DNA from: Psammoneis japonica
Taxonomy: Eukaryota
Assembly: GCA_008632985.1 (NCBI GenBank)
Contig: QPGO01000059.1
Span: forward strand, 1 to 64,000
Direction: 5' to 3'
DNA: 64,000 nt
Each line of letters starts with the position of its first letter. Within the stretch, counting starts at the first letter, position 1. Below, piece by piece: positions 621-62,029 of this stretch. A program made the translations under genes and the position numbers. The notes below the pieces were generated by a model. That model was not told the DNA's origin, searched no databases, and saw nothing but the letters and a program-made list of their open reading frames with translations.

Positions 621-679
621 TATAGTGTTGCTGCCAGTATCACCCATATGATATGTGGGCGTATTAGTTGTGCACTGCC

Positions 680-18609: not shown

Positions 18610-21518
18610 TCTTCCCTTCCATGATTCGAATCATGAGAATCATGAGGGACTAAAAAAAAATTTAAATTTCCAATGACGAGGACAAAGGGAAACCCAGATG
18701 TTGGGGGTAAAACCCTTGACCTCAGCTTCGAAACGGTGCGACGCGCCGAACATTGAGATGTTCCACCACATGAGGCGCTCGTTGGACCGCAAAGGTGCCA
18801 CCAGCATGCAGGTGAGGACCGTGCGCTCAAGGAGCGAGTTTGGCAGGATCCGCGGTCTTGATGAGAATTTGACCACCGATTTGAAAATCCGCCAGTGCCG
18901 GGAGATCCAAAATCACATCGCGTTGGAATGCCATTGCACCCGGCAAAACCTTGAAAGCACGGGAAACCGCACATCACATGGCATGCACAGCTGTCGCCAA
19001 TGCATTGTCTGCCAATTGATTGGCCTGTCCAATGTTCTGTGGAGGACAAATGTGAAGCAAAGTGCACAAGACATTTCCAACAGTTTGATGCACATGTTCA
19101 CATGCCGCATTGGCCTGTGGATTTTGAGAAGTGGTTGGTGCATCATCCACTCCTGCCTGTTGCAGCAACAGTTGAAAATTTCTCCAATGAATTCTCCTCT
19201 GTTGTCATGAAATGCAATGGTTGGGACGAGGATGATGAGACAACCAACAGTTCTGAAATTGCTGAGCAATGTGAGACAAGGTTTTGTTCTCAATGCAAAT
19301 GAGTTCAGCGACATTTGAAACAGTGTCAACACAAGTCAGCGCATTGAATTCAATCTCTTGGCCTTGGATTTTAATCTTCCAAGGGCCAATGAGATCAACT
19401 GCCACTTCATTCCAAGGCAACAAAGACGCTTCACGTTCTGGCAGATCCCCACATCCAGGACCCAAAGTTTTCAAACATTGACAATCAGCACACAGGAAAG
19501 ATTCACAAGATTGACGCAAAGCAGGATGATGGAAATGCGCGCCAATGGCAGAGTGCATTCGATGCACTCCTGCGTGCCCCAAAATTCTGTGGTGCCAACG
19601 CATGTCAGGCAGCAAGGCATTGGAGCACAGATTTTCCACAAAGTTGTTCAATGACCAAGCGCTCGGGATGCTGTTGTTGCATTTGGTTCAATTGTCCATC
19701 AACAAATTGATGTTCCTGAATTTGTTGCACAGTTGTTGGGTTTTGCATTTCCTCAAGAGAGGGACAGTTTAAGAGTGATTCGCACAATTCCAGATTGTCC
19801 ACCACGGAGGAGCAAAAGAGGGACGATTGATCCTGACAACATGAAAATTGAGACACGTGACCCAACTCATCAAGCTCTTCTTCATGAGGCAACATTGCAG
19901 GGTTGATCGTCTTAAAGTCAATCAGCTTGCCCTTGTCAGGAGCACACTTCCCTTCCATTGGAGGATCCATGCAAGGCAGACAAGAGAAACAATCAGCCAA
20001 AATGTTGTCCTTGCCATCAATGCATGCAAAAGTGGGAGCAAAATCTTCCAAGAAAAGATGCCGCCTGAGTGCTCGTTGAGAATTGAGTGTGCGAAAGGTG
20101 AGATTTTTATGACCTGCAAACACAGCACAGTCAACAACCGAATGACATTGAACGAAACTCTTTGAAACACATTGCCACTGCCAACAATTCTTTTTTGATG
20201 GCAGAGCAGTTCTGTTGTGCTGCGCTGAGCTTTCAAGACCAGCATGCTGCCGGTTTGCTGTCTTGCATTGTCACCACACCCATTTGACAGTCGGAAGAAT
20301 CAGCATGGACATGGAAGGGCTTGTCATGATTGGGGCAGACCCAAAGGGTGTCATCCAACATCAAGGTCTTCATGTCCTCGAAGGCTTTTTGACACTCGGG
20401 CATCCACTCCAACTTGCTTTTGCCTGTCAGCTTCATGAGCAGAGCAAGTGTGTGAGAGCAATGAGGCCACACATTGCAACAGCAGGTTGCTGCACCAATG
20501 AACGAACGGAGCTGTGTCATGGTTCGCGGAGCTTGCACCCGCAGCACTGCCTTGACTTTCTTCTTCCACAGTCAAACTCCTGTTGGTGTGAGCCAATGGC
20601 CCAGAAAATCAGTCTCTTGGATGCACCACTCACATTTGAGTGGGTTGACTTTGAGATCATTTTCGTCCAGCCTGGATGACAGCTCATCAAGTCAATGCAT
20701 GTGAGCAGCAAATGAATCATCAAATTGAGCAATGTCGTCAATGCAGGCTTTGACATCAAGGCCTTTCACCACTTTTTCAACAATGGCTTGAGCAACATCC
20801 AGAGGCATTTTCAAAGCCATCACCAGTCAACAATGCCAAAATTTCCCAAATGGAGTGACAACAGTGCACAAATCCTTGGACTCTTCATCAAGCTTGACAC
20901 CATGGCAGAACACAGTCAAATCAAACTTTGTTAAAAACTTGCAGCCTGATTGTTGGTGAATGACATCTGAACAATCAGCAGAGGGCACACCTTGCGCTTG
21001 AGCACCTTGTTGAGCTCTCAAAAATCGGACATCCATCGGACTTGACCATCTTTCTTGGGAGCAACGAAGGTTCCTGCCGCCCACTCTGTTGGTCCCACAG
21101 GTTCCAGTGCACCAATGTTGCAAGAATGCTTCAATTCCTTCTTGAATGCCTCTTCATCCCTCTTGGATGCTTCACAAGCTTTAGAATGGAAGGGAACGGC
21201 ATTGGGGTCAACTTCCAAATGAACTTTCTCATGCAGGCATTTGCCAAGGGTTCCATCAAAAAGAGTTTTGTGCCGTTCAAGCACACACTGGAGCTGGTCT
21301 TGTTGTTCTGAGGTCAAATGAGATTGAGGCTGAGCCACTGCCTCCATTGATGCTTTCTCATGCTTCGCATCCAGCACAAAAGATTGACCTGGGAGTTTGT
21401 CACTGCATTCATCCTCCTCATGACTGTTGAGTGCATCTGACCAATTTTGCATCTGGCTCCAATGGTTGGCTTGTTTCATCAGAAGAGTGACATCGAACCA
21501 TTTCACAACTCCGAATCG

Positions 21519-23154
21519 TTCCAAGGGACATTTGGTTGGACAATTGCCATTTCTGGCATTCCATTGGTGGATTGTGCCAGCCCTGTCTTTGGTTTCAGAC
21601 CGTCTTTGCACCGTGCCAAAGCCTGTGGATCCCTTTTGGTCCTTCATTTTCTCTTTCGAATGATGGAGTGCTGTCAGCACGCATTTCTTCTTGGCGTGGA
21701 CCTGCATTGTGACAACTCCTCTTTAGCTCAGAATGTTTCAAACTTTGCGTCATTGCCTCCCTTGCCAGACAATCCAGAAGAATCTAAAAGTGAGTGTGGT
21801 TGTCATCAACGGCACCACATTGCAAATGCTCTTTCAGCTGAATGGGATGTCATTCATGAGATCTGCCAGTCCCTGCAGCAAATCTCGGATTTCTCTGTAA
21901 GAGGATGTTCCGGCACCTTTGTTGAGTTTCATTGGGCGAAAGGACATCAAGACAACGTCCTTCCTTTTGAGTCTCTGTCTCTTCTGGCAAAGTTGAATGT
22001 TCACGCAGATCGGCTGGTGGTGAGTCGACACCAACGCCAATGCTCCGGGGACTCTCTTCTTGCTCCTTGGATGCCCCACTGCCTGGCAAACTTGGTTGTT
22101 CAGAACAAGACGGTTTCTTGAACTTCAAACCCATCCTCCATTGCAAAGCTTCCAGCTCAGCTCTCATCACCTGCATGAAAGAGAAATGCTGTTGGTCTGA
22201 CATCGTGTTCGACTCGATTGATTGGATGGTCCATTCTAAATTGATGGCTGGGAACATTCGGCGGAAGGTCAGTGCAGTCAAATTGGTTCAAGATCTGCCA
22301 CCAACCAACAAGACAGTGCGCCAACACAATCCTGTCCAACCTGACTGTTGCATTCATTGCCAGCATCAGATGGAGGATAGAGACCACATTCTCTGATGTC
22401 CTCACAACGAGAATTGGTGCAGAAAATTTCTACAAGGTCTGCGGAAAAAGTGCGACAACATGCACACCTCCCCCTTGAGATTTGTGACTTGCTCATGTTG
22501 TCTCTTGAAGCATGGTTTTGCAACAAGATCCAATGTTCAGATGGTCTTCATCGCAGTGTGACATCCGCACTGCATTCTCAGGAGGCCATTGGATGGCGAC
22601 ACATTTTCAGTGGACGTTTTTTGTGTCAGTGGAACGTGTCCCAATGCTCTTGTCTGTTGTCCAGCGGCATTTGTCAAGAGCTCACGGACAAAGAACAATG
22701 CCCAGATTGGGCTGCTGCAGTGGGAAATTTCATTTGGGATCCCAAAGGTGGGATCTGTGGGATTCCCACAATGACGATGCACATGGCCATGATTTGGAGA
22801 CCAGAAAATCATCACAATGTAGAGACGCCGAAGCAGAGGTCAAAGTGATTTGCTCAAGATCGGACGAGTGTCTGGCCAAGGACAGATCACAACTGTCAGA
22901 CTTGGTCAAAGAGCATCTTACACACTCAACACACCATCTGCAAAACTGGGTTGCCATGGTCAAACCTGTGTTTGAGTCAAGCATCAAGGAAGCCAAACGT
23001 CTGGCTGTTTGCGGCACTGGAGCCATTGCAAGCCGCTTTGGCACAGCATCGCCTGCTGGTGATGCTGACTCTGGCCAATCGCCACATGCTCCTGCTGCAC
23101 GGTCAGTGTGCCAGGGGTGTGGATTGGCTTGTTGCCACAGATTTTTGGTTTTAT
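21519..23154 (+). mobile_element. 5'-truncated non-LTR retrotransposon (RNase H-bearing LINE) nested in Gypsy pol
   Basis: GTFGW, LHCDN, AEWDVI, HWAKGHQD, LNVHADRL RNase H motifs, CxxC..EDRDHIL knuckle; flanked by imperfect 20-bp repeats at 21499-21518 and 23155-23174. Confidence 0.75.
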
Positions 23155-25167
23155 CATTTCATGGCTCCGAATCGAAAATCGAGTGTCATTCCAGCCTTGG
23201 AAAGGAAGTCTTGGCCCAACATCATGTCATGCTTGCATGGCGCATCAAACACTTGGGCTGCAATGCCATCAACTTGTTTCAACTTGTCAAATTCGGGTGG
23301 CACCAGATCTTTCACAATGGCATGTCGGGAGGACTCATGTCGTCCAGCTGCCGTCTGAAAACTGAGTCGTCCTGATTCATTCACAGTGGGATTGGCTGCC
23401 TTCAGAAGAACTCGGGAGTGAACAAGGGTGTCAGTGCCTCCTGAATCTAATGGCGCACACACAATGCTGGCCTGCTCTCTTGGCCTTGAATTGTGCACGC
23501 CGCCATCAACGTTGTTGGAACCACATTCAGTGGTTTGGGAGTCACAGTTTTTGGGGTTGGCACAGTGCACTCCAAAGGGCCACACAGCACAAGATTCCAT
23601 TGGGTCTCCCACATCTTCATCAACATCAAAACACATGTTTTCATCACAACCACACAAAACACAAAAAGATTGAGCGACACACTCTGACTTGGGCACTTCC
23701 GTCCCTTGTCAATTACGCCAACTTCGTTGGCCTTGCGGGAGTCGACCACTCGATTGCACCCGTTTCCACCTTGCATCTGGCAAGGCCCTCCTTGATCAAA
23801 ATGGTGCAACTCCAATTGCCAGCCACCAGGAGGAGCTGCTCCAGCCAGATTTCCATGGCCTTGGGCATCACCACTGGCTTGGGTGCCATTTTGATTTTGA
23901 CAGCAAGATCTGCCACCTTGGGAATTCTGATGGTCATTTTGATTTCCATGTCCTCGGCCTCCACAGCCTTGGTCACCACAGTTGCCACAACCACCACGGC
24001 CTTGGAAGTTGCCATGACCTCCTTGGCCTTGCAATCCTCTTCCCTTGGCAGTTGCCATGGCCTCCTCCACAACCTCTGCCACGACCTCCACCACGGTCTG
24101 ACCTTGGTTGACAGTTTTGGCTCTCCGGATTCAAAATGCAATCCTTCCACTTGTGATCATGGTTGGCATGTGCAGGGCATCCAGCCTCTGAATCGACTCA
24201 AGTGCCACTCCCATGAGTGTGCCTTGAAGCTTGAGACAAGGAGCCACTGCTTTTCCTCTTCTTCTCTTGCTTCTTTGAGTTGCCTTTGTCCGCGAAGGAC
24301 TTTTTGTTGTTCGTGCAGCTGACAATCTCAGCAAGACTGTCGTTGGCCATCAAACGGCCTGCTTGGGTGTGCATCTCATGCCATGGACGAGAAAAGCTGT
24401 CAAATGTCAACTTTTTCTTCTGGGCTTCGTTTGCTTGCGGAGTGCCCCCCAGCGACTTGTTAGAGCACCAAATCAGCATCTCCATGTGATCAGCATGTGC
24501 CTGCACTTTGGATTTGAATGGCTTTTTCAAGGTTGGCAAGCACTCAATCATGGCATCACGTGCCTCATCATCACAGTGAGACAAGCAAAAACGATTTGTC
24601 TCCTGATTGAAATGCACAACCGTCTCATCTGCATCTGCAATCGAGTCACAGTCAAATTTGCCCACTTGTCCTCAGCAGCATCAGTCAATGCTTCTTCAAA
24701 ACTTTCAAACAACTCCTCGCCAGTGGCAAACTCCAATTTTGCAGCAATTTTACAAAAACAATCCTCAACAAACAACAACGCTTCAATGCCATGGGTGCCA
24801 TCAAAATGCGGACACTTTTTGGCATGAGTGCCACCATCATCATGCGATTGCAACAATTTTGCATCTTCCAAATCAGAATGTTCAAATTTTGCTTTGCAGC
24901 CAATGCACGGCTCTTTGAATGATTCACTCATGACACAGAATAGAATGCAACTGTTCAATGGTCCTCTCAAGGGCTTCTGCCTTTGACTCCAAGTGCTGCA
25001 CTCAACTTGCCAAGTTTTGTTTGTGCCGCTTTTGCTGTTGCACTTGTTTCTGATGCTCAACAGCCCAAACTCCTGCTCTTGCTTGCAGTTCTCTCTTCTC
25101 ATGTTTGGTCAATCTGTTTGCATTGTTCCCAGTCTCCATCCAGTTCTTGAGTCAACTGCAATTGCAG

Positions 25168-25280
25168 TGCAAGGTCCAACAAGACAAAGACTTCAGCGAC
25201 AACAGAATTGTGAGCAAAAGACCAAGGCAACAAGGTCACTGAGATTGAAATCAGCGAAGCCCTTTGCAATGGCTTTTGCA
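25168..25280 (-). repeat. Gypsy 5' LTR (TA and CG converted)
   Basis: TG...CA ends; aligns with 18493-18609. Confidence 0.8.
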
Positions 25281-25701
25281 ATGTCTGATGGAATCATTGA
25301 CACTGTGTGTCAGAAAATGAGGTGCACGTCACTGCATCATTTGGCTCTCATGGTCATCATGCAGAGATGGAATCTCCTGCGAAAGTGCATGACCAAGCAT
25401 GCGGTGCACAAGTGTTTGATGAGCCTCGGGTGTGAAGAACCCATTTTGAATGATTTTGCAGTGATTTTGAGAACACAATGTGTGGAGCGATAGAAGCTGC
25501 AGGTGCTTCTTGTGCAATGGTCCTTCCAATCTGATGTTTGGCTTTAAAGTGATCATTTGTGACGTTTTGCCCGCAGGGGTGGACAGGCACGTGTGCCCCG
25601 TGGCAACTCGACCATCCCCTGCTCCATCCAACGCAATGCATGCACATTGCATGCTGTCAACTGGCTGGGCCTGCTCCATCCCCATGTCTTGGCGCCCAAG
25701 C

Positions 25702-25955
25702 CAAGGAACCCCCTCGAGAAAGTTTGCAGCCCCCCAGGAATGCAAGCGCAAGAAGTTTCCAGAGCACCAGGAACCCCTGCAAGAAAGTTTGCAGCCCCCC
25801 CAGGAATGCAACCGCGGGAAGTTTCTAGAGCATCAGGAACCCACACAAGAAAGTTTGTAGCCCCACAGGAGTGCAACCGCAAGAAGTTTGTAGAATGTCA
25901 GGAACCCCTGCGAGAAAGTTTGTGGCCCCCCAGGAACCCCCCGCAAAAAAGTTGG
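25702..25955. repeat. Minisatellite, ~65-bp unit of two related halves, ~3.5 copies
   Basis: Recurring caggaaccc...gaaagtttgcagcccccc and caggaatgcaa.cgc..gaagttt. Confidence 0.8.
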
Positions 25956-26681
25956 AATCCTGTGAGTGGCAATGCGAGCTGAATGTTGCACATGGGATTC
26001 AATGGTTGTGACGCAATGACACATGTGCACTGCCAAAAATGCATGAAAAATGGACAACGCAGATCTGAAAGACTTGTGCAAAAACAAGAATGACCCTCAC
26101 CAAATTTTCATGGCGACAAAAGCCGCTCGCGTTGCTCCCACACTTTTCTGTGCTGCAAAACCAAGGCATGAATCAACACGTCTTGTCAATTGGACATTGA
26201 AATGCAACAATCTGGATCATCCATGACAAACTTGGTGCTCAAATCGAAGGCGCACTCTTGACACCAAAAATGATGCCCTGCAGAAACCCGCGCAAATTCC
26301 ACACAGAAATGAAATCACCCATCAACAACCCTGTTGCAAACGGCAACCGGCAATGCCACACAAACCACCTCAGCAATCAACCAACATGTCACGAGGTGTG
26401 TCAGACAATGAATGACACGACCCTGCCAACAAAAGTGCCACACCACACAAACGGCAATGACAGTGAGCAGGTCATTGTCAATGATGCGCATTTGTGCGAC
26501 TCCGATGGCCACGGATTGAGAATTTCATGCTGTGGGGGTGAAAGTGAAGACACACGGGCCGCAGACAAAAAAAAGCATGACCTTTGGTCATGCATTGTGC
26601 AGGAAAGCACCAGAAACAATTGTTTCAAGTGTGTCTGTCCATCCACATCTGAGTGCCAACTTCTTGCAAATCAAAACACCT

Positions 26682-27325
26682 CACTCTGCAGCCATTGTCT
26701 GTCTTTGTGTGTCATCGTTTGTCAGCCATTCTTTTTCTGTGATGCAGTCCACAGACTCTGATGGCAAACACACCTTTTGGTTCTCCGTGCCGTGCCGCAC
26801 CGCGCCGCACCTCAGGAAATGTGAAAGCACAGCGTGCTGCAACCAACAGAACCACAAACACAAAACAACACCAGCGATTGGCATTCTCGGCCCAGTTTGC
26901 CACAACAATGCCATCCACTGTGCCAAAAACAGACCAAGTGAAGAGTGGTGCAAACAATTTCAATGAGTGAGATGCTTTTTGCGCCGATGAGATGCCATGG
27001 TCAGTCGATGGCGACATCCGCACTTGCATCCATTGGTTTTTTGTGGGTCTGGTGTTTGTTTTCAAAGTCACACATGAACAAATGACATGTTGTCCGTTGC
27101 ACAATTGGATTTGTTTGACAATTTAATTTTGAAATTGTGCTGACATGTGCAACACACAAGCCCGTTGAGCCTGTTGGTTGCAGCATGCTGTGCTTTTAAA
27201 TTTCCTGAGGTGCTGCGCAGAGAATGAAAAGGTGTGTTTGCCATCAGAGGGCATGGGAGACCCGCGCCAAGCAAAGCAAGGGACAGACAAAGCAGGGGAC
27301 AGACAGACCCGATGGCTGCAGAGTG
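26682..27325. repeat. Imperfect long inverted repeat (foldback/MITE-like)
   Basis: 26756-26849 is the gapped reverse complement of 27171-27250; outer cactctgcagccat / atggctgcagagtg also pair. Confidence 0.7.
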
Positions 27326-28848
27326 CAAAATGCCATTGGTCAGGCAGCATTTCAATTGACTTCCCAAAAAGTCATTGGCCCTGATCACTCTCCGGTGTGT
27401 GTTGTGCACTTTTCTGCACAATTTTGCATTTTTCCTCATGTGAAATGTTGTTTGTGAGCCATGCAACATTTTTGAATGACCCCTGTTGTCTGCTTTGAAC
27501 TTGAGACAGTTGAGTGCTGAGAAACGATGACATCTTCACTGTTCACTTCCTCACTCCTCAAAGGCACCCAACGGCACCTCCTGCTCTGGTGGCCAGCTGC
27601 AGCAAAGTCTCTCTCTCTGGCCAGCAGCAGAAAGCAGATGGAGCACTGCTTTTTAGAGCAGAGGTTGTGCATGAGGAAAAAAATGGAAATTTCAATGGAG
27701 GTGGTCAGCAAAGCACTGCTGCAACTTCTTGGGGCAATGGTTGGCAACACTTGTGACAAATGCCACCACAACTTTCCTTGCAAAAGACAAATCTGCAGCA
27801 CTGGAGATCCAATGCAACAAATCATGCAGGGACTTTCTTTTTCTGGGACACACAGAGATCTTTGTTTTTGGAGATGACACTGTGCCGGACCCATGCTTGG
27901 CCTTGTTTGAGCTGTTCTTCATTGTTTTTGTTCATCAAAGACACAGATGTCACTTTTGGGAGGACGACTGGTTGGGTGAGGGCCTTGGTTTGATGAGAAA
28001 CGGAGTTGTGATTTTGCACAAATCAAAAAATGGGTCTAATTGCTGTTGTCAGCCATTTTTGAGCGGCAAAACCCACACTTTGATGTTCATTCATTCATTT
28101 CACTCAATCTCATGACTGTCTTTGATGGCATCGACTCACAACAGTCATGAAAAGATTTTGATGTCTTGGTGTGCTGTGGGTGGGGGCTGTGTCAAGAAAA
28201 ACATCGTCCTCTTGCATCTGCAAGAAACACCAAAAAGCATGGAATTGAATTGATCCATGCTTGGATGTTTGTTCATCCAATGCACATTTTCTGTTGCTTC
28301 CCTTTGTCAGCATCTCTTCATTGTAAAAGTGGAAAGCATCCCCTGTCTTGTGCATGCCATGTGTTTGTTTTGTGGCAAGCAAGGTTGGTTGCTCTCGTGT
28401 GGTCTCGCACTGGCATGTTTTGGCTGATGCTGACCCACACTTTGATGTTTGCTCACATTCATTTCCTCTCTTCGCTCACACTTCTTTGATCTGATCTCTT
28501 CTTTGCAGTTTCAAAAAGCTTGTTTTGTCTTGGACACAGTTTTGGTGATCTTTCATGCCAACTGGCGGCAACAGCAACCATCACACCAACTGGCGGCAAG
28601 AACCATCATGCCCATCAATGAGAGCTGAGAACAAGAGTGCTGCATCTCATGGGCGCATCCCTCCTCATGATGCAGGATGCCTTCTGCAGCATCGCATTGG
28701 ATGCCAGCCATGGCACTGCATCCAGTGCTGTCTGCAATGTCATGTTGGGTGCCAGCTGTTGCATGGCTTTCAATGCTGTCTACATTGTTGCATCGAATGC
28801 TGTCCATCAAGTGCCAATGTCACCATTTTATCACAGCCACCCGGCCAT

Positions 28849-30400
28849 TTAATCACCACCCATGTCCATCACAGGCATGCTGAGAAATTCCTTGTCAAGC
28901 TGCTTCAGTTTCTTTTTGGCAATTTCCTCACCAAGCACATCACGGAGACTCTCAATCTTGCACTTCTTCTCCATGTGCTCATCCACACTGCCCTTCTTGG
29001 TTGCCCTTTCCAAAGCATCTGCCATCTGCTTGCTTTCTGCCCTGCGCACTCCCTCTTCTCATCCAACTCCAGCCATTTCTGATCATTCAACAGCCATGCT
29101 TCCTCCTTCTTTGCCTGCAACTCCAATCTTTTCTTCTCATTCAAAAGGGCCATTTTGTTGTTTTCTTCTTCCAACATGCCTTGCTCTTGCAACTTTAGAG
29201 CCACATCAGCCATGATGGTTGCTGGTGATTTGCCCCTGCCGCCCTTGCTGGCTCCACTCTTGGGCTTGCTCTTTGCTGAGTGCATCGCTTCTGTCCGCTT
29301 GTCTGAAAAAAATGCAAGGTCTTGACCCATGTCACCACATTTCTCACAGCCATGCAATCCTTGTGAAGGACAAAGAACAATGTCATGCACAGTCGATCCT
29401 TCACAATCCACTGCACCACAGGACACAAAACCATCTGGAGACTCCTCATCACGGTCAACATCATTGCCACTTGCAACTGAGCCCATCACAGAATTTATGT
29501 TGTTGAGCATTTCTTTTTCTGGTGGGCCTTGGCTTGGCTGGATGATTTCTCCTTCCACAACTCAGCCTCAAACACCCCCTTCAGATCACACAGATCCCGC
29601 TTGCACAGTTTGTCAGCCGTGAGCACCAACCCATCTTCAAGTGTTTCAGGAGGTGCACCTCAACCAGCTGGGGTGTTCACACCCACCTGCCCCTCTCCCA
29701 CATGTGCTCCATTGCTCTCCATCTCAATGTTGGGGGTGCCATTGATGATTTTTTCCACCAAAGCTGTGCACCAACGAGCATCTTGCAATTCCTGGTGAGT
29801 GACACCACAACCGGCAGGAAACCAGCCAAAATGATGCTGATCCTGCAAAATCTTGTTCATGCAGCTGGAAACATCAGCATGCCTGTCATTGATCTTGCCA
29901 CCACAAGAATGCACCTTGAAGTCATTGGCACAATGGATGATTGTGTGCTTGAACAATGCAGGTTGCGACTTGTCTCAGTTGACAGCTTCCCTGGAGTTTT
30001 TTGAAGCAGCACTCCACCTCCTTGTTGGACAGGAAAGGTGCTCCTCATCTGTCATCTCAGAGGGATGCTTCCAATCCTTGTGTCCTGTCTTCTTCTTTCC
30101 ATGTTCAACACACTTGCATGGATGCTTGAATTTGTCATCTCGGAATGGCCTCACGTCTGCAGAGTTGCCATTCAGGCTTGCTGCCTCCAATGGCTGCATT
30201 CAGAATGAGCTTGCTCTTTGCATCAAGAGCAAGTGACACTCTTGAAGCACCAATGTCAGCATCAAAAGACGCAAGAGCACTGGTGGAAGAAATCTCATTC
30301 CACTGTTGTGCAAGCATTGTTCATGCATTCCGATCAATGTCAGCAGCAGCAGCAGCAGATGGTGCAGCACGGTGTGCGTGTTGATGCTCTGCTGAAAGTG
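28849..30400 (-). pseudogene. Decayed hypothetical gene with charged coiled-coil C-terminus (possibly a transposon accessory gene)
   Basis: Consecutive frameshifted protein-like fragments, e.g. ALKLQEQGMLEEENNKMALLNEKKRLELQ and IESLRDVLGEEIAKKKLKQLDKEF. Confidence 0.4.
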
Positions 30401-45140: not shown

Positions 45141-45148
45141 CAGGAGGA

Positions 45149-45333
45149 TGTTTTGGTCTGTCCGTGTGTGGACAGACAAGGCTGCTGATGTGTTTGTTGG
45201 CTCGCTTCTTAGAAAGTGTGACTTTGATGATGTCTATGACATTTTGAAGACTTTGGCAGAATGCGGGATAGATCCAATCTAGGATCCTTTTCACAATTCA
45301 AACAGATCTTGTTTTTGACACGGATTCATTCAG
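45149..45333 (+). repeat. Copia 5' LTR
   Basis: Starts tgttttggtctgtc; matches 51978-52163. Confidence 0.85.
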
Positions 45334-51100: not shown

Positions 51101-51977
51101 CAAAGTGGACACCTCGATCAGGTGCATCACATCTTCGCATGCCTCAAGAAGCACCACAATGCGGAGATGGTGTTTGTCCCCAGTGATCCTGCAATTGATG
51201 AGTCCCCATTTGCTCAACAGGATTGGACGACCTCCGAATTTGGACTTGCTGCGAAGGAGGAGGCACCTGGGGACATGCCTCAAGCTCGAGGCATGGGTGT
51301 GATCGTCACTGCACATGTTGACGCGGATCACGCAGGCGATTCGATTGCTCGCCGATCGCGCACTGGTTTTCTTGTTTGTCTGAACTCTGTGCCTGTTTGC
51401 TGGTTGTCCAAGAAGCAAACAGGCATCAAGATGAGCTCGTTTGGGTCAGAGTTTGCCAGCATGAAGCAATGCACTGAGTGCATTCGAGGTCTTCGGCACA
51501 AGCTTCGGATGATGGGGATTCCGGTCACTGGTCCAGCCCATGTCTTGGGTGACAGCCAGTCGGTTCTGGCAAACACCTCCATCCCCGACTCAACGTTGAA
51601 GAAGAAATGTCACAGTTTGGCCCATCACTTTGTCCGTGAGGGTGCGGCCCGGGATGAGTGGCGGACTGCGCACATCAACACGCATTTGAACCCAAGTGAC
51701 TCATTGGCCAAGGCGCCACCTTCAGGGGAGAAGTGCAACCAATTCATTCGGATGATTCTACATTGTGTTGGAAGGAAGGTGGTGCAGGCTGCGCACCGCC
51801 GAACCACCTGCCATTGCAGAGGGTTTTATTTTGGAGTTCCCCACCGGTGGAGTGGGTTTTTGTTTGGAATTCCCCACTTGATGGAAGTTTGCATGGAGTT
51901 CGCCATTGCATGATGATGACACATCCCTTTGTTGGCAATCTAGATTGACAACATGACCAAGTCTAGATTGAGGGGAG

Positions 51978-52163
51978 TGTTTTGGTCTGTCTGTGTGTGG
52001 ACAGACAAGGCTGCTGACGTGTTTGTTGGCTCACTTCTTAGAAAGCATGACTTTGATGATGTCCACGACATTTTGAAGACTTTGGCAGAATGCAGGATAG
52101 ATCCAATCTAGGATCCTTCTCACAATTCAAATGGATCTTGGTGTTTTTGATGCGGATTTGTTT
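51978..52163 (+). repeat. Copia 3' LTR
   Basis: Immediately after the PPT; direct repeat of the 5' LTR; last bases uncertain. Confidence 0.85.
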
Positions 52164-53684
52164 TGTCGAGTCACTTTTGGCAAGGAAATGAGCACCTGTT
52201 GTTGCCAAACAAAGGTTTTGGCAGTGCCATTGTCGTTTGTGTGCGGAAATCAAAATGCTTGATGTTTGGGTGATGTCACATGTTCCCAACAATTTAGATT
52301 CGTCTGGATTTTTTTAAGATGTTGCTTGCAAAAAATCAACTGACTTCTGGGTTCCTCAATGCACTGAAGCAAGACTGGATTTGAGTGATTGGGGCCTGGT
52401 CACTGGACTGCAACAGCAGCAAAAGCATTGTGTGCTCAACAAGACAATGCAATTGTCATCTCATTGTGAGATCCAAGTGCTGATGGTGAGAGAGACAAAG
52501 CAGCCATTGAAACAGCAACTGTTGCATTCCCGCCAACGTCATTGCACATGACTGACAGACGACCATGTTCTGTCCTTTCTTCTTCCTTTTGATGCACCAG
52601 TTGGAAATTTTGGTGCCAAAAGTGCTTCAAAGTTCCAGACTGACAGCCAAGCCAAAAACTGTCTGGGGGTTTGAAGCCTGACAATGAAAGCAGAATCCAG
52701 GGTGCAAATCCTCCTGGGTTTGCCTTCATCAACAACTGGCTGATGCCGCGTGACAATGCAACAGTGTTCTCCAAGCAGCCAAAAAGGGCATGGCACAAAC
52801 AAATGCAAGTTCAAAGAGCTGAGTGAACTTGAGCAAACCTTCAGGCAAGTCTCAGATTTGCAAACGAGTTTCATCACAGCCGTTGGAATCAAACCGTTGG
52901 CTTTCGAATGACAACAAGATGCACAAAAACAGGGTCCTGTTGTTTGCTGTGTCTGAGAGACAACCTCCGGGTGGCAGAGCTCAAGCAAGAGATGATCAAT
53001 CTCCGGACAAATGCTCCACAGTCACAGCCCAGATGCGCAACCTGGACAGCAGTCGATCAGTCATCTCTGCCAGCTTTTGCAAAGTGGTTCTCTAGAGTTG
53101 CAACAAGTGAACTTGCAGTCATCTGTGTCTTGCGCTTTCAAGGCTTCTGTTGCGTGACGTCCGACGCACATCAGTTGTTCCATTCATTCATGTTGCTGTG
53201 GTTTGTGAAGAGACAAAAATCGCAATCCAAGCATGCACCAGCATGCACACCTGACAACTGCACTGGCAATTGCTTGCAATTCAAGAGAATCAGTGTGTTG
53301 CTGAGCTGCACTGCAGTGGCTCTGCCCACCAATGGGTGGCTGCTAGAGTGGGGCCCTGCAGGTGAAAGCAGGGCTCTCCGCACTGATGCTGCATGTTGCC
53401 ACCGCATGCATGGTGCCATCTTCAAGATGTTGCTGTCATTCTGGCGCTGTGCATGGCCGCGCCGCATCACAGCAATCAATCATCAGGTGGCATCTGCGCA
53501 ATGCCAGGGCCATCTGAAAACATCTGTTGTGCACTGTTCCAAGGCAATGTTTTGTGCTGAGCATGAGATGGGGAGCTTGTTCTGCACACGAGGAATGAGG
53601 AAGAGCGCGATCCACTGCAATCATCACGAGTGCTGACACAACCACAAACTCCACCATGCATCCCGATGAAGCCTGCCATCAAGG

Positions 53685-55700
53685 TCAGCCGTTGGGTTTC
53701 TTCATTCGGAGCCCTTCATCAGCTTCGCACACTCCCACAAACTTTGCAGCCTCTGCCCAACAAACCTTTCCCGATGCTCCCTGCTTCTTGATTTGTCGAA
53801 AACTCTGGAGGCAGGATTTGGTGGACTGGGGTGTGCATGGGCAGACATCTGTCAAATGCACTGCTGCAATGTTTTGTGCTGCCTGGCAGATTCCACGCAG
53901 TTTTGTCGGATGGCAAATGTTGCCTTTGGCATGCTGACAGCGAGGCAAATTTGTGGCGCAATGCACGCACCTTGTCCCCACTTGTCCGACACGAATCTGT
54001 TTCTTTCTGCCTTGGATGTTGCAAGTGGAGTCATCTTCGGCCACCTCGAAATGTTCCAACTGCTTCTGAGCAAGGATCTGATGTTCTGACAGATCATCAA
54101 CATCGGATGACAAGAACATGCAAATGCCCCCGGATTTTGTTCTGGGAAACAAATCATGATGAGCAGGAGCTGCAGTGGCTTGAAAAGAAAACCTCTCAGG
54201 GGCTCCTGATGGAGGATGGTTAGCTGGCCCAGAAAAGCTGCTGGCTGACCAGTCACTGCGTAAGGACGGACAGCAGGCTGCTGCTGGATCGGGAATGCTG
54301 TCGGAATGACCACAGTGGGACGCTGCAATGACAGCATTGGATTGAGTGCCATTGCAGCCTGCACCGCTGGTGTGCTCGGGTGCAGCCCGATTTGTTGTGT
54401 CACTGCTGCGGGCAGCAGAATGTTTGCGTGTTGACTTGCTGCCATTGCAGCATGGTGCTGACCTTCTTGTTGCAGCAAGCTGAGCATGCCATGATGAGGA
54501 AGACCAGCCATGGTCCTTGGTGGCACATCGACATTTCGTGGACATTGATCCGCTCTTGAGTCAACTCTTGGTCTCGTCGCAAACTCTGCTCTCAGTGACA
54601 AAGATGATGGTGCCAACGATGAGTTGTTGCTGGTCATGGCAACCATGCCCGACTGTCCCCCAATTGCTGCTGTTCTCCCTCTCCCACCACTGCTGCTGTG
54701 AGCAGTGTTGCCAGAGATGCCATTTCCACGAACTGAGCAAGCGACATTTGATGCCGCAACATGATCCTCGCTGGCCTCTTGGCATCCTCGTTGCATGATG
54801 CCCATGGAATTCACGCGATGCTTGCGACGGCTTTTGTTGGAGGAGGAGGATGAGGACGAGGTGGTTGTTGCGGTGGGGCTGGCAGCAGCAGTGCTGGCAA
54901 GCTGACAAGCAGAAGGAGCATCACTGGATGTGATGCTCCTGTTTGTTGAGATTCCAGCACAGCAAGTGACGTAGAAATCATCTCTTTGCACTGTCTTTTC
55001 TTGGGATTTGTCACTTCTGCCTCTCCTCCATCAGAACAGTCTTCAGCAGCTTTCAAGCAAGAGGATGGCCCACTGGCCTGAGTGGGAGCCACCTTGTCAT
55101 TTGCAGTCATTTGTTGTTTGCTCCTGTCGGGCTTCGTGGCGGCACCTTGTTGTTCCATTGCACTTGTTGCATCTTCATTTTCGAGTTGCTTCACATCTTG
55201 AACTGGAATCGTGTTCGCACGAGCGGCTGGCTCCTTGGTCTCCACTGCTCTTGTTGGTGGCACAATTTCTCGACGAAGAGTGCCGTCGCTTTTTGACGCT
55301 CTGCCGCTGGTTTTGACAGTTTTCTCCATGTTGTTCTTTCAACATGATGATGATTCAAGCACGAAACTCTGGACTCAGCATTGTCACACCATTCAGATGG
55401 CTCCTTCACCACCGGCACTGGTGCAGTTGTTTTCAGTGCACTGTCCGCAGAGCTTTTTTGTTTACGTTTGGCGATTGGCTGGCGACCTGAAAGCACGGAT
55501 TCAAGGTGCAGCTCTGAGCAACATTGGAGAAAGGGACTTTTCAAGAAACACCGTGACGTCGCATTGTCGGTGGAATTGCACATGCGGAGAAAATTTTGTT
55601 TGACAACTTTTGTGCATTCTCCTGATCAATGCTGAGTTGACTCATTGTTGCCAGCATTTGCAATGACAAGGAACAAGGAAACAACTGTTGGCAATGACCG
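53685..55700 (-). pseudogene. Decayed QVGxRCxHC-domain paralog, with duplicated 3' flank at 53045-53685
   Basis: LSEHQILAQKQLEHFEVAEDD..GQVGTRCVHC..GICQAAQNIAAVHL; flank aligns with 12600-13255. Confidence 0.8.
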
Positions 55701-55759
55701 CTGCTGACATGGCGAAGGATGAAGGACGCAATCAGCAATCGAACCGTGTTGCAGCTTCA

Positions 55760-57868
55760 ACGCACCTGCGAGCCACATGCGGGAAAGAAAGAGAGAAAAG
55801 AGAGTCGTCAAGACGAATGAATTGAGTGGCAACTGAAGGCAGTTTCCCACGTTCCATGTCGAGTTGCGGTGAAGAGCAATGGCGCTGATGGCGAAGAGGC
55901 GAAAAGGGACTGCCATTTTCATCAAGAACTCGTTCCACCAATGACAAGCGTGTCTGAGTGCCGCCAAGAGGAAGAGTTCGGCATTGCCCAGAGCAGTGCT
56001 GACACGATTGCAGCTCAAGATGCAAAGCGACTTGCAAATGAATGTGGAACAAGCACGATGCAATGCCAGGGCACCGACATGTCACCCATCCAGAGCAAAC
56101 GGTCTACACCTGCCAATGCCAATGTTGATCCTGCTCTCGCTCGTCCCACCTCTCGTCTGAAGGCTGCAGCAGAAGAGGACGATGCTGGTGGACGAGAGGC
56201 AGAAGTGGCAAATTGCGAAAGGCAGTGCAAAGAAGGGATTTCTAAGTCGCTCACAATGTTGCAACAACGAACAAGAAGAGCAGCACCAAGTCCTCCTCCT
56301 GATGCTCGTCGTCATTGTCCAAACAGTGTTCCCTCCTTCTCCTCGTCATCCTCGAACAACATTTTCTGTGAGAAGTCCAGCATGCAACGAGCAAGACGCC
56401 ACGGCCAAGACACCACCGGCGACGACAATCACGCAGCATTGTCAAGTGTCTCCAGCTCAGTGGCAGAAACAGCACCTCTGGGGACACTGCAGCAAGTGGC
56501 AGCGGTGGGACGAGGACGAGAAGCGCAACAACAACCACGGGAATGACATCAGCTGGGCCAGAAGACAACGCGACCAGCTGTTGCTCATCATCCTCTTCAT
56601 CGAGAGGGCTCTTTTCGACGAGGCCCAGAAGAAGCAATCACACCGGGCTGGGTCAGGATGATCAGGATGCCTCCCACTCAATCAGAAACGACAACTGCAC
56701 CAACACTTTGCGAGAAGATGAACACTGCCCCCCAATCCATCAACAAAATTCATTCCTCTCACATTCTTGCATGCTTCTTACCCTCCCCAACATGCTGGAG
56801 CACATGACTCATCCAGAAGAACGTCCTCACATGCCACCAAGGGACCAACATGACAAGTTTTTCTTCAAGGAACACGAAGACAAGTGCCAGCTGCTTCAGA
56901 TGAAGAAAGCAAAGCCGCCAACAATGGCATCAACTTTGCCTCAAGAATGAATCCAAATCCAAGAAATGCTGATCTGCCACCAGGGCATGACCTTCCTCAT
57001 GAACATGTGCTCAGTTTGCAACAAGGTCAGGAGAGGCATCGTCATCAGCAACACCATGCCACAGCAATGGCTCGACAGGCAAGCATGGCGCCACTGCACC
57101 CAGCAGTGACTCAACCATTTTTTCCTTTGCCAAGTTTGTCAGCACAGCCTGCAATGGTGTTTAATCCAATGGCACCATTGCAGTGTTCAACAAGCGTCAT
57201 TCCGATCACATCCCTGAATGTGCTTGCTCCTCCTCACACAATGCATGGTCAACCAGCAGCTCTTCCGGGCTTGGTTTGCCAGCCTCCATCAGCAGCTCCA
57301 GTGATTTCTCATCCAACCACTGCATCCCACAGTGCCCCGAGTGGACCCACCCATTTCGATTTGTTCCCCAGAACAAAATCCGGCGGCATTTGCATGTCTT
57401 TGTTGTCTGATCCTGACAATCTGACGGACTGTCAGGTCCTTGCCCCGGAAACAGTTAGAACATTTCGAAGCAACCAAAGGTGACTCCAAATGCACCACCC
57501 AAGGGAGAAAGAAAAAGACACATGAAGGACAAGTGGGGACAAGGTGCATGCATTGCACTGTGAAGCCTGATGTCGAGCATTCAAAAGGTGGCGTTTGCCA
57601 TCCGATGAAACTCAAGAGGATTTGCCAAGCCGCACAAAATGTTGCAGCTGCGCATTTGACAGACGCCTGTAGATGCACACCCCAGTCTACCAAGTCCGAC
57701 CTCCAGAGCCTTCGTCCAATCAAGAAGTTGGCAGCAGCAGGCAAGGTTTGTTGGTCAGAGGCTGCAAAGTTTGCGGAACTTTACGAAACGGAAGTGGGAC
57801 TTAGAATGAAGTCGGTGGCTGACAGCCGTGCTTCTGGCGGCCTGGCTCACTCTGCTCTGAGCGAATGA
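55760..57868 (+). pseudogene. Decayed QVGxRCxHC-domain paralog, head-to-head with the previous one
   Basis: LTDCQVLA/RKQLEHFEATKGD..GQVGTRCMHC..RICQAAQNVAAAHL; N-terminal part homologous to the 54811-55329 ORF. Confidence 0.8.
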
Positions 57869-58279
57869 GGTCTTCATTGAGCTGCACACATTTCCGTCTG
57901 TGTGATTTAAAAGACGTGTGCTGGCATCTGCTCAAGAGGAATGTGCCCAAAGTGGGGCCACCGACAGGCAAGCATCGATCGCTTCACTTGTGCATGCGGT
58001 GTCGCTCTGCTGCACTTGGAAATTCGTGGAATTCCCATTGTTGTTTCAGGTTGTCAGGTGGAATTTCTAATGTCACACACATCGCAGGAACAATTTGAAT
58101 TTACCGCAGCTGCTGTTCATGCTCATTGTGCGAACAAGAGGGATTTCTTAGACAATCTCTCTGCTGGTGGCCACCAGCTGGCTCCAGAAGCAGGTCGGTC
58201 TGGCAACTGCCGGTGCTGTGCAGTGCACATCGACCCTTGATCAAACAGAGTGGACTCTAGAAGACAGAATCATCTCCGA

Positions 58280-59594
58280 GGAATCTGTTTCTTTCTGCCT
58301 TGGATGTTGCAAGTGCAGTCATCTTCGGTCGCCTCGAAATGTTCTAACTGCTTCCGAGCAAGGATCTGACATTCCAACAGTTTGTCAACATCAGATGACA
58401 AGAACATGCAATTGCCCCCAGGTTTTGTTCTGGGAAACAAATCATGATGAGCAGGGCTGTGTTGCCCACTGTGAGGTGCTGCAGTGGCTCGAAAAGAAAA
58501 CCTCTCAGGGGCTTCTGATGGAGGATGGTCAACCGGGCCTGCAAGAGCTGCTGGCTGACCAGTCATTGCGCAAGGATGGACAGCAGGCTGCTGCTGGATC
58601 GGGAACACTGTCGGAATGACCACAGTGAGATGCTGCAATGACAGCATTGGATCAAGTGCCGTTGCAGCCTGCACCACTGGTGTGCTTGGGTGAGGCCCGA
58701 TTTGTTGTGTTGCTCCTGATGGCAGCAGAATGTTTGCTTGTTGACTTGCTGCTGTTGCAGCACAGTGCTGACCTTCTTGTCGCAGCAAGCCGAGCACACC
58801 ATGACGGGTTCCAGTCCCAGGTGGGACTCCGTGTGACATTGGGCCCGCAGAACTCTGCGTGCGAGCTCCACAGTGAATTCATTGAGCAATGAAAATGCAA
58901 ATGATCACCAACAGAAAAAGAGGCAATTTTACGAACATGTCTCCTCCTTCATGCTTGGTGTGCATCATCAACAGTTTGCCCGGGTGTGTTCTTCAGACAT
59001 TGAAGAACATGCCCAGAGTGTTTTCATTCTCATGAATGTTGAAAATGGAAAGCCTTTGGCTTCGCAAAACAGGGAGCATGAAACAATTTCGTAGAACACA
59101 ACACGTAGAAATGTGCGTGCGCGACATGCGACGTGATCCAAAAAACTGTTGATGTCACAGTGCAGCAGTGTGAGGTCCCACCTGGAGCTGGAACGCGTCC
59201 CATGATGAGGAAGACTGGCCACAGTCCTTGGTGGCATGTCAACATTTCTTGGATGTTGATCCGTTCTTGAGTCGACTCTTGGTCTCATTGCAAACTCTGC
59301 TCTCAGTTGTGACAGTGATGCCAACGATGAGTTGTTGCTGGTCTGCGACATTTTGAAATCATCATCATTGCATGAATCAACCCAGGCATTGTGCAAAGAA
59401 AGGATTTCATCTGTAAGAGGCACTGGTGTCCCACACTTGCAGTGGTTTTCCATGACAAACAAAGTCTGCCACATTTTGCGCTTCTCCTCCTCCTGGTCCT
59501 CTTCATCATCAAATGACACCACCGGCAACGTGTTGCCACAGATTTGGCTCGCCCTGTTTGATGCCGTGTCTCCACTTGCTTGTGCGTGATTGCC
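58280..59594 (-). pseudogene. 3'-truncated decayed QVGxRCxHC-domain paralog with MITE insertion
   Basis: LLECQILARKQLEHFEATEDD..QGRKKQI; DNA aligns with 13563-14437. Confidence 0.8.
58803..59199 (-). mobile_element. MITE copy 5 (second subfamily), TSD CCAT
   Basis: The empty site is visible in paralogs (gccatgatgaggaagacc at ~14045 and ~54488). Confidence 0.92.
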
Positions 59595-60331
59595 NNNNNN
59601 NNNNNNNNNNNNNNNNNNNNNNNNNNNNNNNNNNNNNNNNNNNNNNNNNNNNNNNNNNNNNNNNNNNNNNNNNNNNNNNNNNNNNNNNNNNNNNNNNNNN
59701 NNNNNNNNNNNNNNNNNNNNNNNNNNNNNNNNNNNNNNNNNNNNNNNNNNNNNNNNNNNNNNNNNNNNNNNNNNNNNNNNNNNNNNNNNNNNNNNNNNNN
59801 NNNNNNNNNNNNNNNNNNNNNNNNNNNNNNNNNNNNNNNNNNNNNNNNNNNNNNNNNNNNNNNNNNNNNNNNNNNNNNNNNNNNNNNNNNNNNNNNNNNN
59901 NNNNNNNNNNNNNNNNNNNNNNNNNNNNNNNNNNNNNNNNNNNNNNNNNNNNNNNNNNNNNNNNNNNNNNNNNNNNNNNNNNNNNNNNNNNNNNNNNNNN
60001 NNNNNNNNNNNNNNNNNNNNNNNNNNNNNNNNNNNNNNNNNNNNNNNNNNNNNNNNNNNNNNNNNNNNNNNNNNNNNNNNNNNNNNNNNNNNNNNNNNNN
60101 NNNNNNNNNNNNNNNNNNNNNNNNNNNNNNNNNNNNNNNNNNNNNNNNNNNNNNNNNNNNNNNNNNNNNNNNNNNNNNNNNNNNNNNNNNNNNNNNNNNN
60201 NNNNNNNNNNNNNNNNNNNNNNNNNNNNNNNNNNNNNNNNNNNNNNNNNNNNNNNNNNNNNNNNNNNNNNNNNNNNNNNNNNNNNNNNNNNNNNNNNNNN
60301 NNNNNNNNNNNNNNNNNNNNNNNNNNNNNNN

Positions 60332-61505
60332 TCAGGAAGGAACTCCACAAGGCTGCCTTTCAGCTCTCCAAGACACAGAGCATCGATGAGATTTTCTGGG
60401 GTGCGATCCGGATCTCTTTGTCCTCCAATCTTGAAAAACTTAAACTGCTGGAAAGAGAGCTCTGCGTCGTCCTGGAACATGTTGTGGTGAATTTGGTCTG
60501 CCTTGAGAGTCGCACCAACGATGCTTGATCAACAATTGCCATGATCGCTGACTGCCCCTTTGGATTGCCGTGAAGCCCTCGGCACACTTGCAACATTGAA
60601 TTGTCCACAGAAACAGAGGAGATCCAAAGAACGCGGATCTTCACCTTGCTTCGTTGTTGCCTCAGAAATGTGCAGCTCAAAATTCTGTTGCATCAGCAAG
60701 CAACATCTCTTCAATTGTTCCATGATCTCTCTAAGAATGAAACAAATTAGAGTCAGATCAGCAATCATGGAGGCCCTGTCATTTGCGCTTGCAGTGCTCC
60801 ACATTTTCTTCTTGTCAAAGCTGTGCAAGTTGAAAGTGTCGTCGTTGCGGTCTTCCACGGAGAATTTGTCCTCCATCAAAACAAAGCTTTCGAATTTGCC
60901 AGTGTGCTCCTCCGACAATTGTTTCCACTCATCGTCATTTTCGAGGTCTTCCTCGAGACTGTCTGTGATTCACAACACAGGTGAGAGCTTCATGACTTGC
61001 ATTGCTGGCTTCTGTTTTGGCAGGAAGAGCAGCGTCTTTGTCTTCAATTTCAAATTAGCACTGGTGCAACAAAAAGAGAAGCATGGATGCTGCGGATGAG
61101 TCATCAGGAGAGAATGACAGATGATTGGCATCGAGTTCCACGCTGCATCCGACAGAAGCCGAGAGATCTGAATGGCTGGGAATCTTGCACGACCCTCCCA
61201 AAGGAGACGTCGCCCCAGTTTGCTTTGCTGCAAATTCTGAGACCTGCATCAAACAAGCAAGCAACCACATCAGGCATGAGACAATCCCCCACGGAAGGGG
61301 CAAAAGAATGATTCTCGATCTGCAAAGCGGTTGGAAAGGCCGGCCACACACAAGCGGAAGGAAGTCTTTGGAGCCTTTGAAACTGCAACCAATTTTGAAG
61401 AGTCTGATGCGCTTCTCCGGCGGTGGGGCGTGGTCGACATCATGGCATGATTCATTCCAGCCATGTGTCGGCAGGCCGCATGATGGTGCTTGGTGCGTCA
61501 TCTGA
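60332..61505. pseudogene. Decayed duplicate of 15260-15885 joined to a decayed fragment of the RNA ligase-kinase 3' end
   Basis: 61130-61505 aligns with ~17790-18370 with an internal deletion (PTEAERSEWLGILHDPPKGDVA). Confidence 0.85.
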
Positions 61506-62029
61506 GAACTGACAAGAAACGATGATGTGAGAAATGAAACATGGAAATTTCAATCTCTCGTTGGGTGTGCGCGTGATGGCAGAAGACGGAAAGAACGAAA
61601 CAAACACGCATGGACAACCAACAAAATACCTCATCGCTGACAAACGAACCAAGGGAACAGACTGGTTCTCAACGTCCATTGTGATTCCTTTGGTGTGAGG
61701 ATGAGAGCAACAGACCAACCCGGGAAGGAAAAAAGGTTCAACTGCAACAGCAAAAATCTTTGAAACGCATAAATTATTTAGTGATGACGTACTTCTCTGT
61801 GGAAGAATTCCATAAATAATCAAAACAAGCTCAGTAGAAATGACCGTTTTGATGACGTCATAAATAAATGCTGTATTCCACAGGATTTTTTGTCACGCCC
61901 ACATAAATTCACAACTTTCAAAGTTCGTTGCTGAAACTAAGAACATCCCTAAAGCATGTGCTCTATTGTTTATGTATAAGCGTAAACGGCAATAGGCGAC
62001 GATTTTCTTTATCTAGGTCGCACATCACA

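Follow-up and report, generated by a model that had tools for sequence, protein, structure and literature searches.

Surviving TA dinucleotides in transposon-rich blocks of a diatom-like genome point to a flank preference in a TpA-specific hypermutation

INTRODUCTION

The first 64,000 nucleotides of contig QPGO01000059.1 (assembly GCA_008632985.1, deposited as Psammoneis japonica), a 64-kb stretch referred to below as the window, hold long transposon-rich blocks in which the dinucleotide TA (TpA) is scarce and TG and CA are in excess. Why do a few TAs remain in these blocks, and what do the bases beside them say about whatever removed the others? A preliminary description, made by eye from the letters, set the depleted range at 18720–61620, placed the surviving TAs mostly in TAGA/TCTA and TAAA/TTTA contexts, and took a flank preference that protects both strands as a sign of an enzyme reading duplex sequence or shape rather than of drift. 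Here, these claims are followed up with context counts in depleted and genic DNA, alignments of paralogous copies, and homologues of the transposon relics.

TpA-specific A:T>G:C hypermutation appeared once in our literature search, in a 2026 preprint on Bigelowiella natans, and no report for diatoms or other lineages was found. According to the main text of that preprint, mutation-accumulation lines of B. natans acquired 231 mutations within two regions of integrated viral DNA, nearly all being A>G/T>C at TpA; the targets are integrated DNA of nucleocytoplasmic large DNA viruses (NCLDV) and of virophages, TpA-poor clusters rich in CpA and TpG and transposon-like coding sequences are described, and adenine deamination is the mechanism favored by its authors (Mettrop et al., bioRxiv 10.64898/2026.01.13.699255). 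The words "context," "flanking," and "trinucleotide" do not occur in the main text of the preprint (word search; Fig. 2B and the supplements lie outside that text).

RESULTS

TpA depletion is confined to sharply bounded repeat blocks

In the genic DNA flanking the depleted blocks, the observed/expected ratio (O/E) of TpA is 0.60–0.64, whereas in the two strongly depleted blocks and in the partly depleted mosaic between them it falls to values between 0.045 and 0.154 (Table 1). The loss is coupled to a gain of TG and CA (O/E 1.6–1.7) over 13 and 19 kb; across the depleted DNA, TG and CA range from 1.55 to 1.72, and CG is lowered to 0.42–0.73. The edges are sharp, with the last dense TA at 18708 and the first TA past the block at 61627, in agreement with the range first described. 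The blocks are TA-poor as a whole, irrespective of the type of element that they contain, while the adjacent genes and a 933-amino-acid (aa) open reading frame (ORF) between the blocks are untouched; TA content is normal in the genes at 668–11862, 16068–18164, and 39101–41902. Hence, the depletion is restricted to repeat blocks, sparing the genes and one, perhaps young, copy (copy A) of a family of miniature inverted-repeat transposable elements (MITEs). Because whole blocks are depleted while the ORF and genes are untouched and one MITE copy is intact, the agent responsible would have to be sequence-specific and to act over whole regions of repeat-rich chromatin. In terms of TG-versus-CA asymmetry in 1-kb windows, depleted DNA was not more dispersed than genic DNA (standard deviation of z, 1.70 versus 1.84). 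Two runs of N (14438–15259 and 59595–60331), at homologous places of a repeat, were set aside from the analysis.

TG and CA arose from ancestral TA

With the essentially unmutated MITE copy A as the ancestral reference, copies B and C have lost most of their TAs (counts in Table 1), and at several of the same sites copy B now has TG and copy C has CA; therefore, TA must have been the ancestral state. The alignment of two paralogs at 12.6 and 53 kb also contains three cases in which TATA has become TGCA.

The relics of two retroelements give the same direction. For the Ty1/Copia element in block 2, we used the 691 codons for which 40 or more homologues were available and ≥80% of these agreed; 550 of the codons are unchanged. 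Tyrosine, which is kept in 2,739 of 2,880 cells across 86 Copia homologues, has been almost completely replaced: the 34 conserved Tyr columns of the element now hold His (19), Cys (12), Tyr (1), Phe (1), and Asn (1). The 11 conserved Tyr columns of the degenerate Ty3/Gypsy relic in block 1 hold Cys (6), His (4), and Phe (1), with no Tyr left, so that in the two relics together conserved Tyr codons have turned into His or Cys in 41 of 45 cases. The polarized single-step changes in Copia comprise 38 A>G (25 after T) and 31 T>C (26 before A), meaning that 51 of these 69 changes fall in TpA and that the sense strand carries 25 TG and 26 CA events. The other polarized changes are 19 G>A (15 at CpG), 11 C>T (9 at CpG), and 17 transversions, and since the G>A and C>T changes are mostly at CpG, a slower CpG decay runs alongside. 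The change thus went from TA to TG and CA, and it is likely that a regional hypermutation of TpA to TpG or CpA has removed ~92–95% of the TAs from the transposon-rich intervals.

Could the depletion instead be a sequencing or assembly artefact, in which base calling reports TG or CA where a TpA in heterochromatin is modified? k-mer contigs from run X1 (depth ~60) cover block 1 and reproduce the depleted sequence, with eight listed pieces of 474–1,974 bp that each differ by 0–10 letters. This support is not independent, since X1 may be the window's own source sample. However, the paralogs also differ by many transversions and indels, and MITE copy A reads normally in the same block, which makes an artefact very improbable. 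Among the 336 differences between the window and X1 in 19000–36000, 20 were examined, and 15 of these are CpG versus TpG/CpA, in both directions, which indicates that CpG decay is the process now segregating in these repeats; just one is at a TA (25011, CA in the window and TA in X1). The stretch was present in one sample only among the runs examined, with X2 and X3 containing next to none of it, and no RNA data set was among those listed as containing it.

Surviving TAs carry a strong flank bias

Survivors were counted in 19000–31960 and 42500–61500 (TpA O/E ~0.05), and a half-site was defined as a TAGA/TCTA or TAAA/TTTA flank to one side of the TA. In this count, 93 of the 111 surviving TAs have one or two half-sites, compared to 254 of 878 genic TAs (Fisher odds ratio [OR] 12.7, P = 3e-29), as had been seen by eye. 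Removal of near-identical paralogous contexts changes little (87 of 104 survivors), and the bias is present separately in 19000–31960, 42500–52200, 52201–61500, and the mosaic at 32360–39000, with P ≤ 1e-9 in each.

When all 16 contexts were counted on both strands, TAGA was the most enriched (61 of 222 versus 147 of 1,755 genic, 3.3-fold), followed by TAAA (49 of 222 versus 127 of 1,755, 3.05-fold). At the other extreme, TATA, TACT, TAGT, and TACC are nearly gone, with TATA falling from 64 genic occurrences to none in depleted DNA. The context of survivors departs from the genic one at both +1 (chi-square P = 1e-17) and +2 (P = 4e-22). To allow for the products, survival was also expressed as TA/(TA+TG+CA) in depleted over genic DNA; it is 0.26 for TAGA, 0.25 for TAAA, and 0.17 for TAAG, and declines to 0.009 for TACT and 0 for TATA. 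After this background correction, survival is therefore unequal across flanks. The gradient is steeper when both flanks are considered. Writing the hexamer context of each TA as NNNTANNN, and calling a position "resistant" if it is a pyrimidine in the two 5′ flank bases or a purine in the two 3′ flank bases (YYTARR), survival relative to genic density rises from 0 (0 versus 69) with no resistant position through 0.003, 0.048, and 0.21 to 0.54 with all four.

Alignments of paralogs, restricted to sites free of gaps and Ns within three bases, show the same effect at individual TAs: of the TAs that lack a half-site, 4 of 61 are kept, whereas a single half-site gives 29 of 66 and a half-site on each side 1 of 2 (P = 8e-7). 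Single cases noted in the preliminary description were also found as described. The sequence TCTCTAGAG is retained in both the 12.6-kb and the 53.09-kb copies, and GATAGATCCAATCTAGG is retained in both long terminal repeats (LTRs) of the Copia element, for which this name is correct, as polyprotein homology sits between the two repeats. Sparing is only partial, and within the same 12.6-kb/53-kb alignment GGTAAA has become GGTGAA and CTCTACC has become CTCTGCC.

A context bias of this type might arise with no differential survival at all, from the original composition of the transposons, from the coding baseline, or from newly made TAs. The genic baseline avoids in-frame TAA and TAG, the original flanks in the transposons could have differed, and the polymorphism at 25011 could be read as a new TA. 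In contrast, the alignments that use TA-rich references only agree with the counts (3 of 50 TAs kept without a half-site versus 13 of 28 with one, P = 5e-5), and the TAs still present in MITE copies B and C also occur in the unmutated copy A and are therefore retained rather than new. Moreover, the product-normalized ratios span 0–0.26, whereas the flanks of nine control dinucleotides mostly shift by ≤15% (maximum ~20%, excluding shifts that come from the TA and CG loss itself). It would therefore be surprising if composition or new TAs accounted for the bias.

A proposed strand-wise five-base motif could account for survival and product choice

The choice between TG and CA was tested at 85 de-duplicated mutated paralog sites, with the flank bases of TA labeled x2 (−2), x1 (−1), y1 (+1), and y2 (+2). 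TG is favored by a purine at x2 (OR 6.2, P = 2.6e-4), by a pyrimidine at y1 (P = 0.05), and by a purine at y2 (P = 0.05), and CA is favored by a purine at x1 (P = 0.002). In likelihood fits to survivor versus genic hexamers, the negative log-likelihood was 347.3 for the constant-rate null, 273.0 for a model with positions (+1, +2), and 258.4 for a model with positions (+1, −3), the latter beating the constant rate by 89 log-likelihood units. The fitted weights were T 7.3, C 3.8, G 1.5, and A 1.4 at +1 and A 1.0, G 0.8, C 0.43, and T 0.19 at −3. The flanks of TG in depleted DNA give weak hints of the motif as well.

Product choice alone leaves −3 and +2 inseparable, and survival alone leaves (+1, −3) and (−2, +2) inseparable; taken together, they allow one reading, in which editing favors adenines with Y at +1 and R at −3. 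These data point to a strand-wise target, 5′-R-N-T-A*-Y-3′. The two adenines of the TpA step would be edited independently, each at a rate set by the context on its own strand, 5′-R(−3) N T A*(0) Y(+1)-3′, and a TA would persist where both strands are unfavorable, that is, in YYTARR hexamers such as TCTAGA, TTTAAA, TCTAAA, CTTAAG, and similar ones. In TAGA and TAAA, the first purine (+1) would make the adenine next to it, on the same strand, harder to edit, and the second, which corresponds to a pyrimidine at −3 of the opposite strand, would do so for the adenine of that strand. As the two purines of TARR would each hinder a different strand, an apparent protection of both strands could arise without any reading of the duplex.

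The duplex reading itself supposes that the mutator senses sequence or shape around the TA and that a TAGA/TCTA flank makes a poor substrate of both strands at once. TpA stacking and flexibility do depend on the neighboring bases, the resistant YYTARR and the sensitive RRTAYY hexamers are palindromic classes, and a single half-site raises survival about 10-fold (0.02 to 0.2), above what would be expected of two independent halves. However, the strand-wise (+1, −3) model already gives this one-half effect, and product choice depends on the side of the flank (x2 and x1 versus y1 and y2), which a symmetric reader would not produce. The strand-wise five-base motif explains the data better, and a duplex reader seems unlikely. 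Of the enzyme suggested at the outset, the part that stands is a sequence preference rather than drift (survival 0–0.54), while duplex or shape reading is unneeded, given that a strand-wise model suffices.

Within Copia, the products at Tyr codons cluster, with Cys (TG) prevailing as far as ~49.7 kb and His (CA) further on, in 8 runs versus 15.7 expected (P = 0.002; P = 0.044 for all 51 TA events). There was no product clustering in three other alignments, so strand-coordinated tracts are suggested in Copia only, and the clustering may reflect a strand-coordinated or transcription-related component.

Features and gene content of the window

TABLE 1 Coordinates of the depleted blocks, repeats, and relics in the window
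Feature	Position	Strand	TAs	Remarks
Strongly TpA-depleted block 1	18720..31960	.	40	O/E 0.045; CG O/E 0.42; TG and CA O/E 1.7
Partly depleted mosaic	32360..39000	.	68	O/E 0.154; TAGA/TAAA half-site in 50/68 survivors
Strongly TpA-depleted block 2	42451..61620	.	72	O/E 0.064
933-aa open frame between depleted blocks	39101..41902	+		Normal TA, island O/E 0.56; without Pfam family
Degenerate Ty3/Gypsy polyprotein relic, in block 1	18728..23633	−		Placed by homologue mapping
Ty1/Copia element	45149..52158	+		LTRs 45149–45326 and 51978–52158, 91% alike; polyprotein homology 46995–51791
MITE copy A, with terminal inverted repeats	31972..32353	+	22	Essentially unmutated, O/E 0.75; island in depleted DNA
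MITE copy B	33025..33407	+	5	TG or CA where copy A has TA
MITE copy C	34593..35014	+	9	At several sites, the other product than copy B
MITE copy D, inserted in Copia	47756..48145	−	8	Same ends, different interior; TAs counted in a 416-bp extract
MITE copy E, paralog of D	58803..59192	−	3
TA-rich paralog, used as reference	12603..14189	+	46	Right part (13500 onward) itself TA-poor; outside the range first described
TA-poor paralog	53048..54635	+	4	76.7% identity to 12603–14189

The identities of the retroelements come from homologue searches and not from Pfam, as a Pfam scan of 104 ORFs from the depleted blocks gave just two weak matches of retroelement type, one to an integrase zinc domain and one to an aspartyl protease. 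The ORF at 50621–51910 matches Ty1/Copia polyproteins (E = 1e-164), and tblastn placed 86 full-length Copia homologues on the plus strand of the polyprotein region. On the minus strand of block 1, the ORF at 21021–21722 has 1,512 relatives; the three long ones that were scanned (946–1,490 aa) all contain RVT_1 and RT_RNaseH, the two longest add Integrase_H2C2, and one of them also has rve. Since these reverse transcriptase-, RNase H-, and integrase-bearing relatives map to 18728–23633, the interval was assigned to a Ty3/Gypsy relic.

The five MITE copies have ~25-bp terminal inverted repeats and form two subfamilies with common ends and differing interiors. In run X1, the word depth of the family is near 60,000, compared to ~60 for unique DNA, which suggests around a thousand copies. 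Of two metagenome scans for further copies, the first was empty and the second returned loci L001 and L002 only, both of which were rejected as unrelated tandem repeats.

A segmental repeat links 12603–18326 and 53048–61473, with its pieces in the same order at both places and N runs at homologous positions. In the first copy, two pieces are separated by the gene at 16068–18164, whereas ~115 bp separates their counterparts in the second. This gene is an uninterrupted 698-aa ORF with weak TPR matches, an RNA ligase domain, and a P-loop kinase-like domain (AAA_33), an architecture that resembles an RNA repair or tRNA ligase enzyme. Among the other eukaryotic genes of the window, Pfam recognizes a THUMP-type methyltransferase, a WW protein, CIA30, Nop53, and a CID protein. 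The 107 protein homologues of Nop53 reach a best identity of 45%, and every match with a name or taxid is from a diatom (Thalassiosira, Cyclotella, Conticribra, Chaetoceros, Minutocellus, Thalassionema, and Asterionellopsis). An Atlas match that had first pointed to Basidiomycota was set aside in view of these homologues. Judged by its own sequence, the window was treated as coming from a diatom or a close stramenopile relative and not from a fungus.

The window contains 96 frames of at least 150 aa, most of which lie in the depleted blocks, where they overlap on both strands. Long spurious frames are expected in 18720–61620 because TAA and TAG have been lost and TGA is almost the sole stop codon left. 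Beyond block 2, the interval 62001–63000 has a strong strand asymmetry (37 TG versus 114 CA) within a 647-aa ORF (61907–63850) without a Pfam family; the biased composition of a coding region, with no link to the loss of TA, is the probable reason.

DISCUSSION

Taken as a whole, we put the probability of a regional TpA hypermutation with a strand-wise flank preference at roughly 0.7. The mutator would turn A:T into G:C in transposon-rich intervals, and only at TpA steps, and the survivor flanks point to the sequence preference of a putative DNA-editing defense. The chemistry may be an enzymatic deamination of adenine in DNA, giving inosine that is read as G, and the editing would probably take place on transiently single-stranded DNA, with guidance by chromatin state rather than by repeat homology. 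The substrate is DNA and not an RNA intermediate, because both strands of the retroelements and also DNA transposons are altered. A chemistry on thymine, for example, oxidation to a form that pairs with G, would change T to C in the mirror context 5′-R-T*-A-N-Y-3′; TA being palindromic, an A>G on one strand is a T>C on the other, and all our counts fit either. On grounds of plausibility, adenine deamination is the simpler route from A:T to G:C and is the one proposed by the B. natans authors, so we consider thymine chemistry improbable.

The process may be the same as the live one in B. natans. In both cases, A>G/T>C changes at TpA lead to TpG and CpA (here on the evidence of relics and paralogs, with 51 of 69 polarized changes), TpA depletion is clustered and accompanied by a gain of CpA and TpG, and mobile or foreign DNA is targeted (here, Copia, Gypsy, and MITE relics) while ordinary genes are spared. 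In contrast to B. natans, which belongs to the Rhizaria, the host here is a diatom-like stramenopile, and the targets are transposon relics and whole repeat blocks. The depletion is also far deeper, with an O/E of ~0.05, compared to the 0.45 given in the main text of the preprint for the NCLDV region. The B. natans process was observed live, with a very high de novo rate that is sporadic between lines, whereas the one described here is known from the sequence of a single window.

Comparison with better-known editing and mutation systems shows both shared traits and clear differences. Repeat-induced point mutation (RIP) of fungi is a C>T change at CpA that creates TpA, needs duplication, and affects all copies. 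Like RIP, the pattern here consists of numerous mutations, all transitions at one type of dinucleotide, which destroy the coding capacity of repeated or mobile DNA and leave genes alone, but its direction is opposite (TpA lost and CpA/TpG gained), the host is not a fungus, and MITE copy A is unmutated within a family of ~1,000 copies, although this copy may be young. With the retroelement editing of APOBEC3 and ADAR, it shares deaminase-type hypermutation with a short neighbor preference; for ADAR, a preference for a 5′ U is cited in the B. natans preprint (bioRxiv 10.64898/2026.01.13.699255). However, APOBEC edits C, and ADAR acts on double-stranded RNA and would mark the sense strand of a retroelement only, unlike the changes here, which affect both strands of Copia (25 TG and 26 CA) and extend to MITEs and the DNA between elements.

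Among known enzymes, the TadA/ADAT2-type tRNA adenosine deaminases carry HxE-PCxxC motifs, and their natural substrate, A34, follows an invariant U33 and so presents a "UA" context. A TadA-like UACG target was considered and then dropped, because TACG is among the better survivors. No deaminase domain was found among the window ORFs that were scanned with Pfam.

Several observations weigh against the combined reading. (i) All counts are limited by a single window, the sole stretch analyzed, and the survivor sets are small (111 + 68); the genic baseline is coding DNA and slightly under-represents TAR (46% purine at +1). (ii) TACG half-sites survive at 0.12, above the prediction of a rule with C at +1, yet CG-TAY codons in Copia are frequently mutated. 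(iii) The product signal emerged solely in position-by-position tests. A first product test, with TG-versus-CA pairs mixed in, gave no association (OR 0.92, P = 0.79), nor did a test with post hoc two-base classes (P = 0.47); the P/M/S classes of the early product tests had been drawn up from the survivors themselves, and 85–95 aligned sites plus a model comparison are the basis of the −3 effect. (iv) In the 3′ half of Copia, His predominates over Cys, although Tyr codons always have a pyrimidine at +1, which would favor Cys under the R-N-T-A-Y rule; some regional or strand factor outside the model must therefore contribute. (v) ADAR prefers a 3′ G, and a 3′ pyrimidine is preferred here. (vi) The amphioxus protein BjADAT2 can deaminate A in DNA, and the context that it prefers, GAA (PMC10354150), is close to the opposite of the T-A-Y context found here and does not match R-N-T-A-Y. 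No other natural ADAT2 is known to edit A in DNA.

The proposed flank motif, with R-N-T-A-Y sensitive and YYTARR resistant, is new for a recently described kind of genome defense. Read through its survivors, what looked like a compositional oddity becomes the specificity of a putative enzyme, which is usable against published de novo mutations, for the screening of candidate deaminases, and for detection of the process in other genomes. There are also consequences for annotation: the loss of TAA and TAG produces many long spurious ORFs on both strands, from which gene callers would predict false proteins, and Tyr-to-His/Cys changes together with Pfam-invisible relics hide transposons from standard tools.

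The same signature, near completion in diatom-like transposons, suggests a process of greater age or wider distribution than a single species would imply. More tentatively, and at somewhat less than even odds, diatoms and chlorarachniophytes may share a chromatin-guided defense in which a natural DNA adenine deaminase erases TpA from mobile and viral DNA by reading a single-stranded five-base R-N-T-A-Y context. If this is true, the shared defense would parallel, for adenine, the RIP of fungi and the APOBEC editing of animals, would be widespread in the supergroup of Stramenopiles, Alveolata, and Rhizaria (SAR), and its specificity would be readable from the TAs that survive it.

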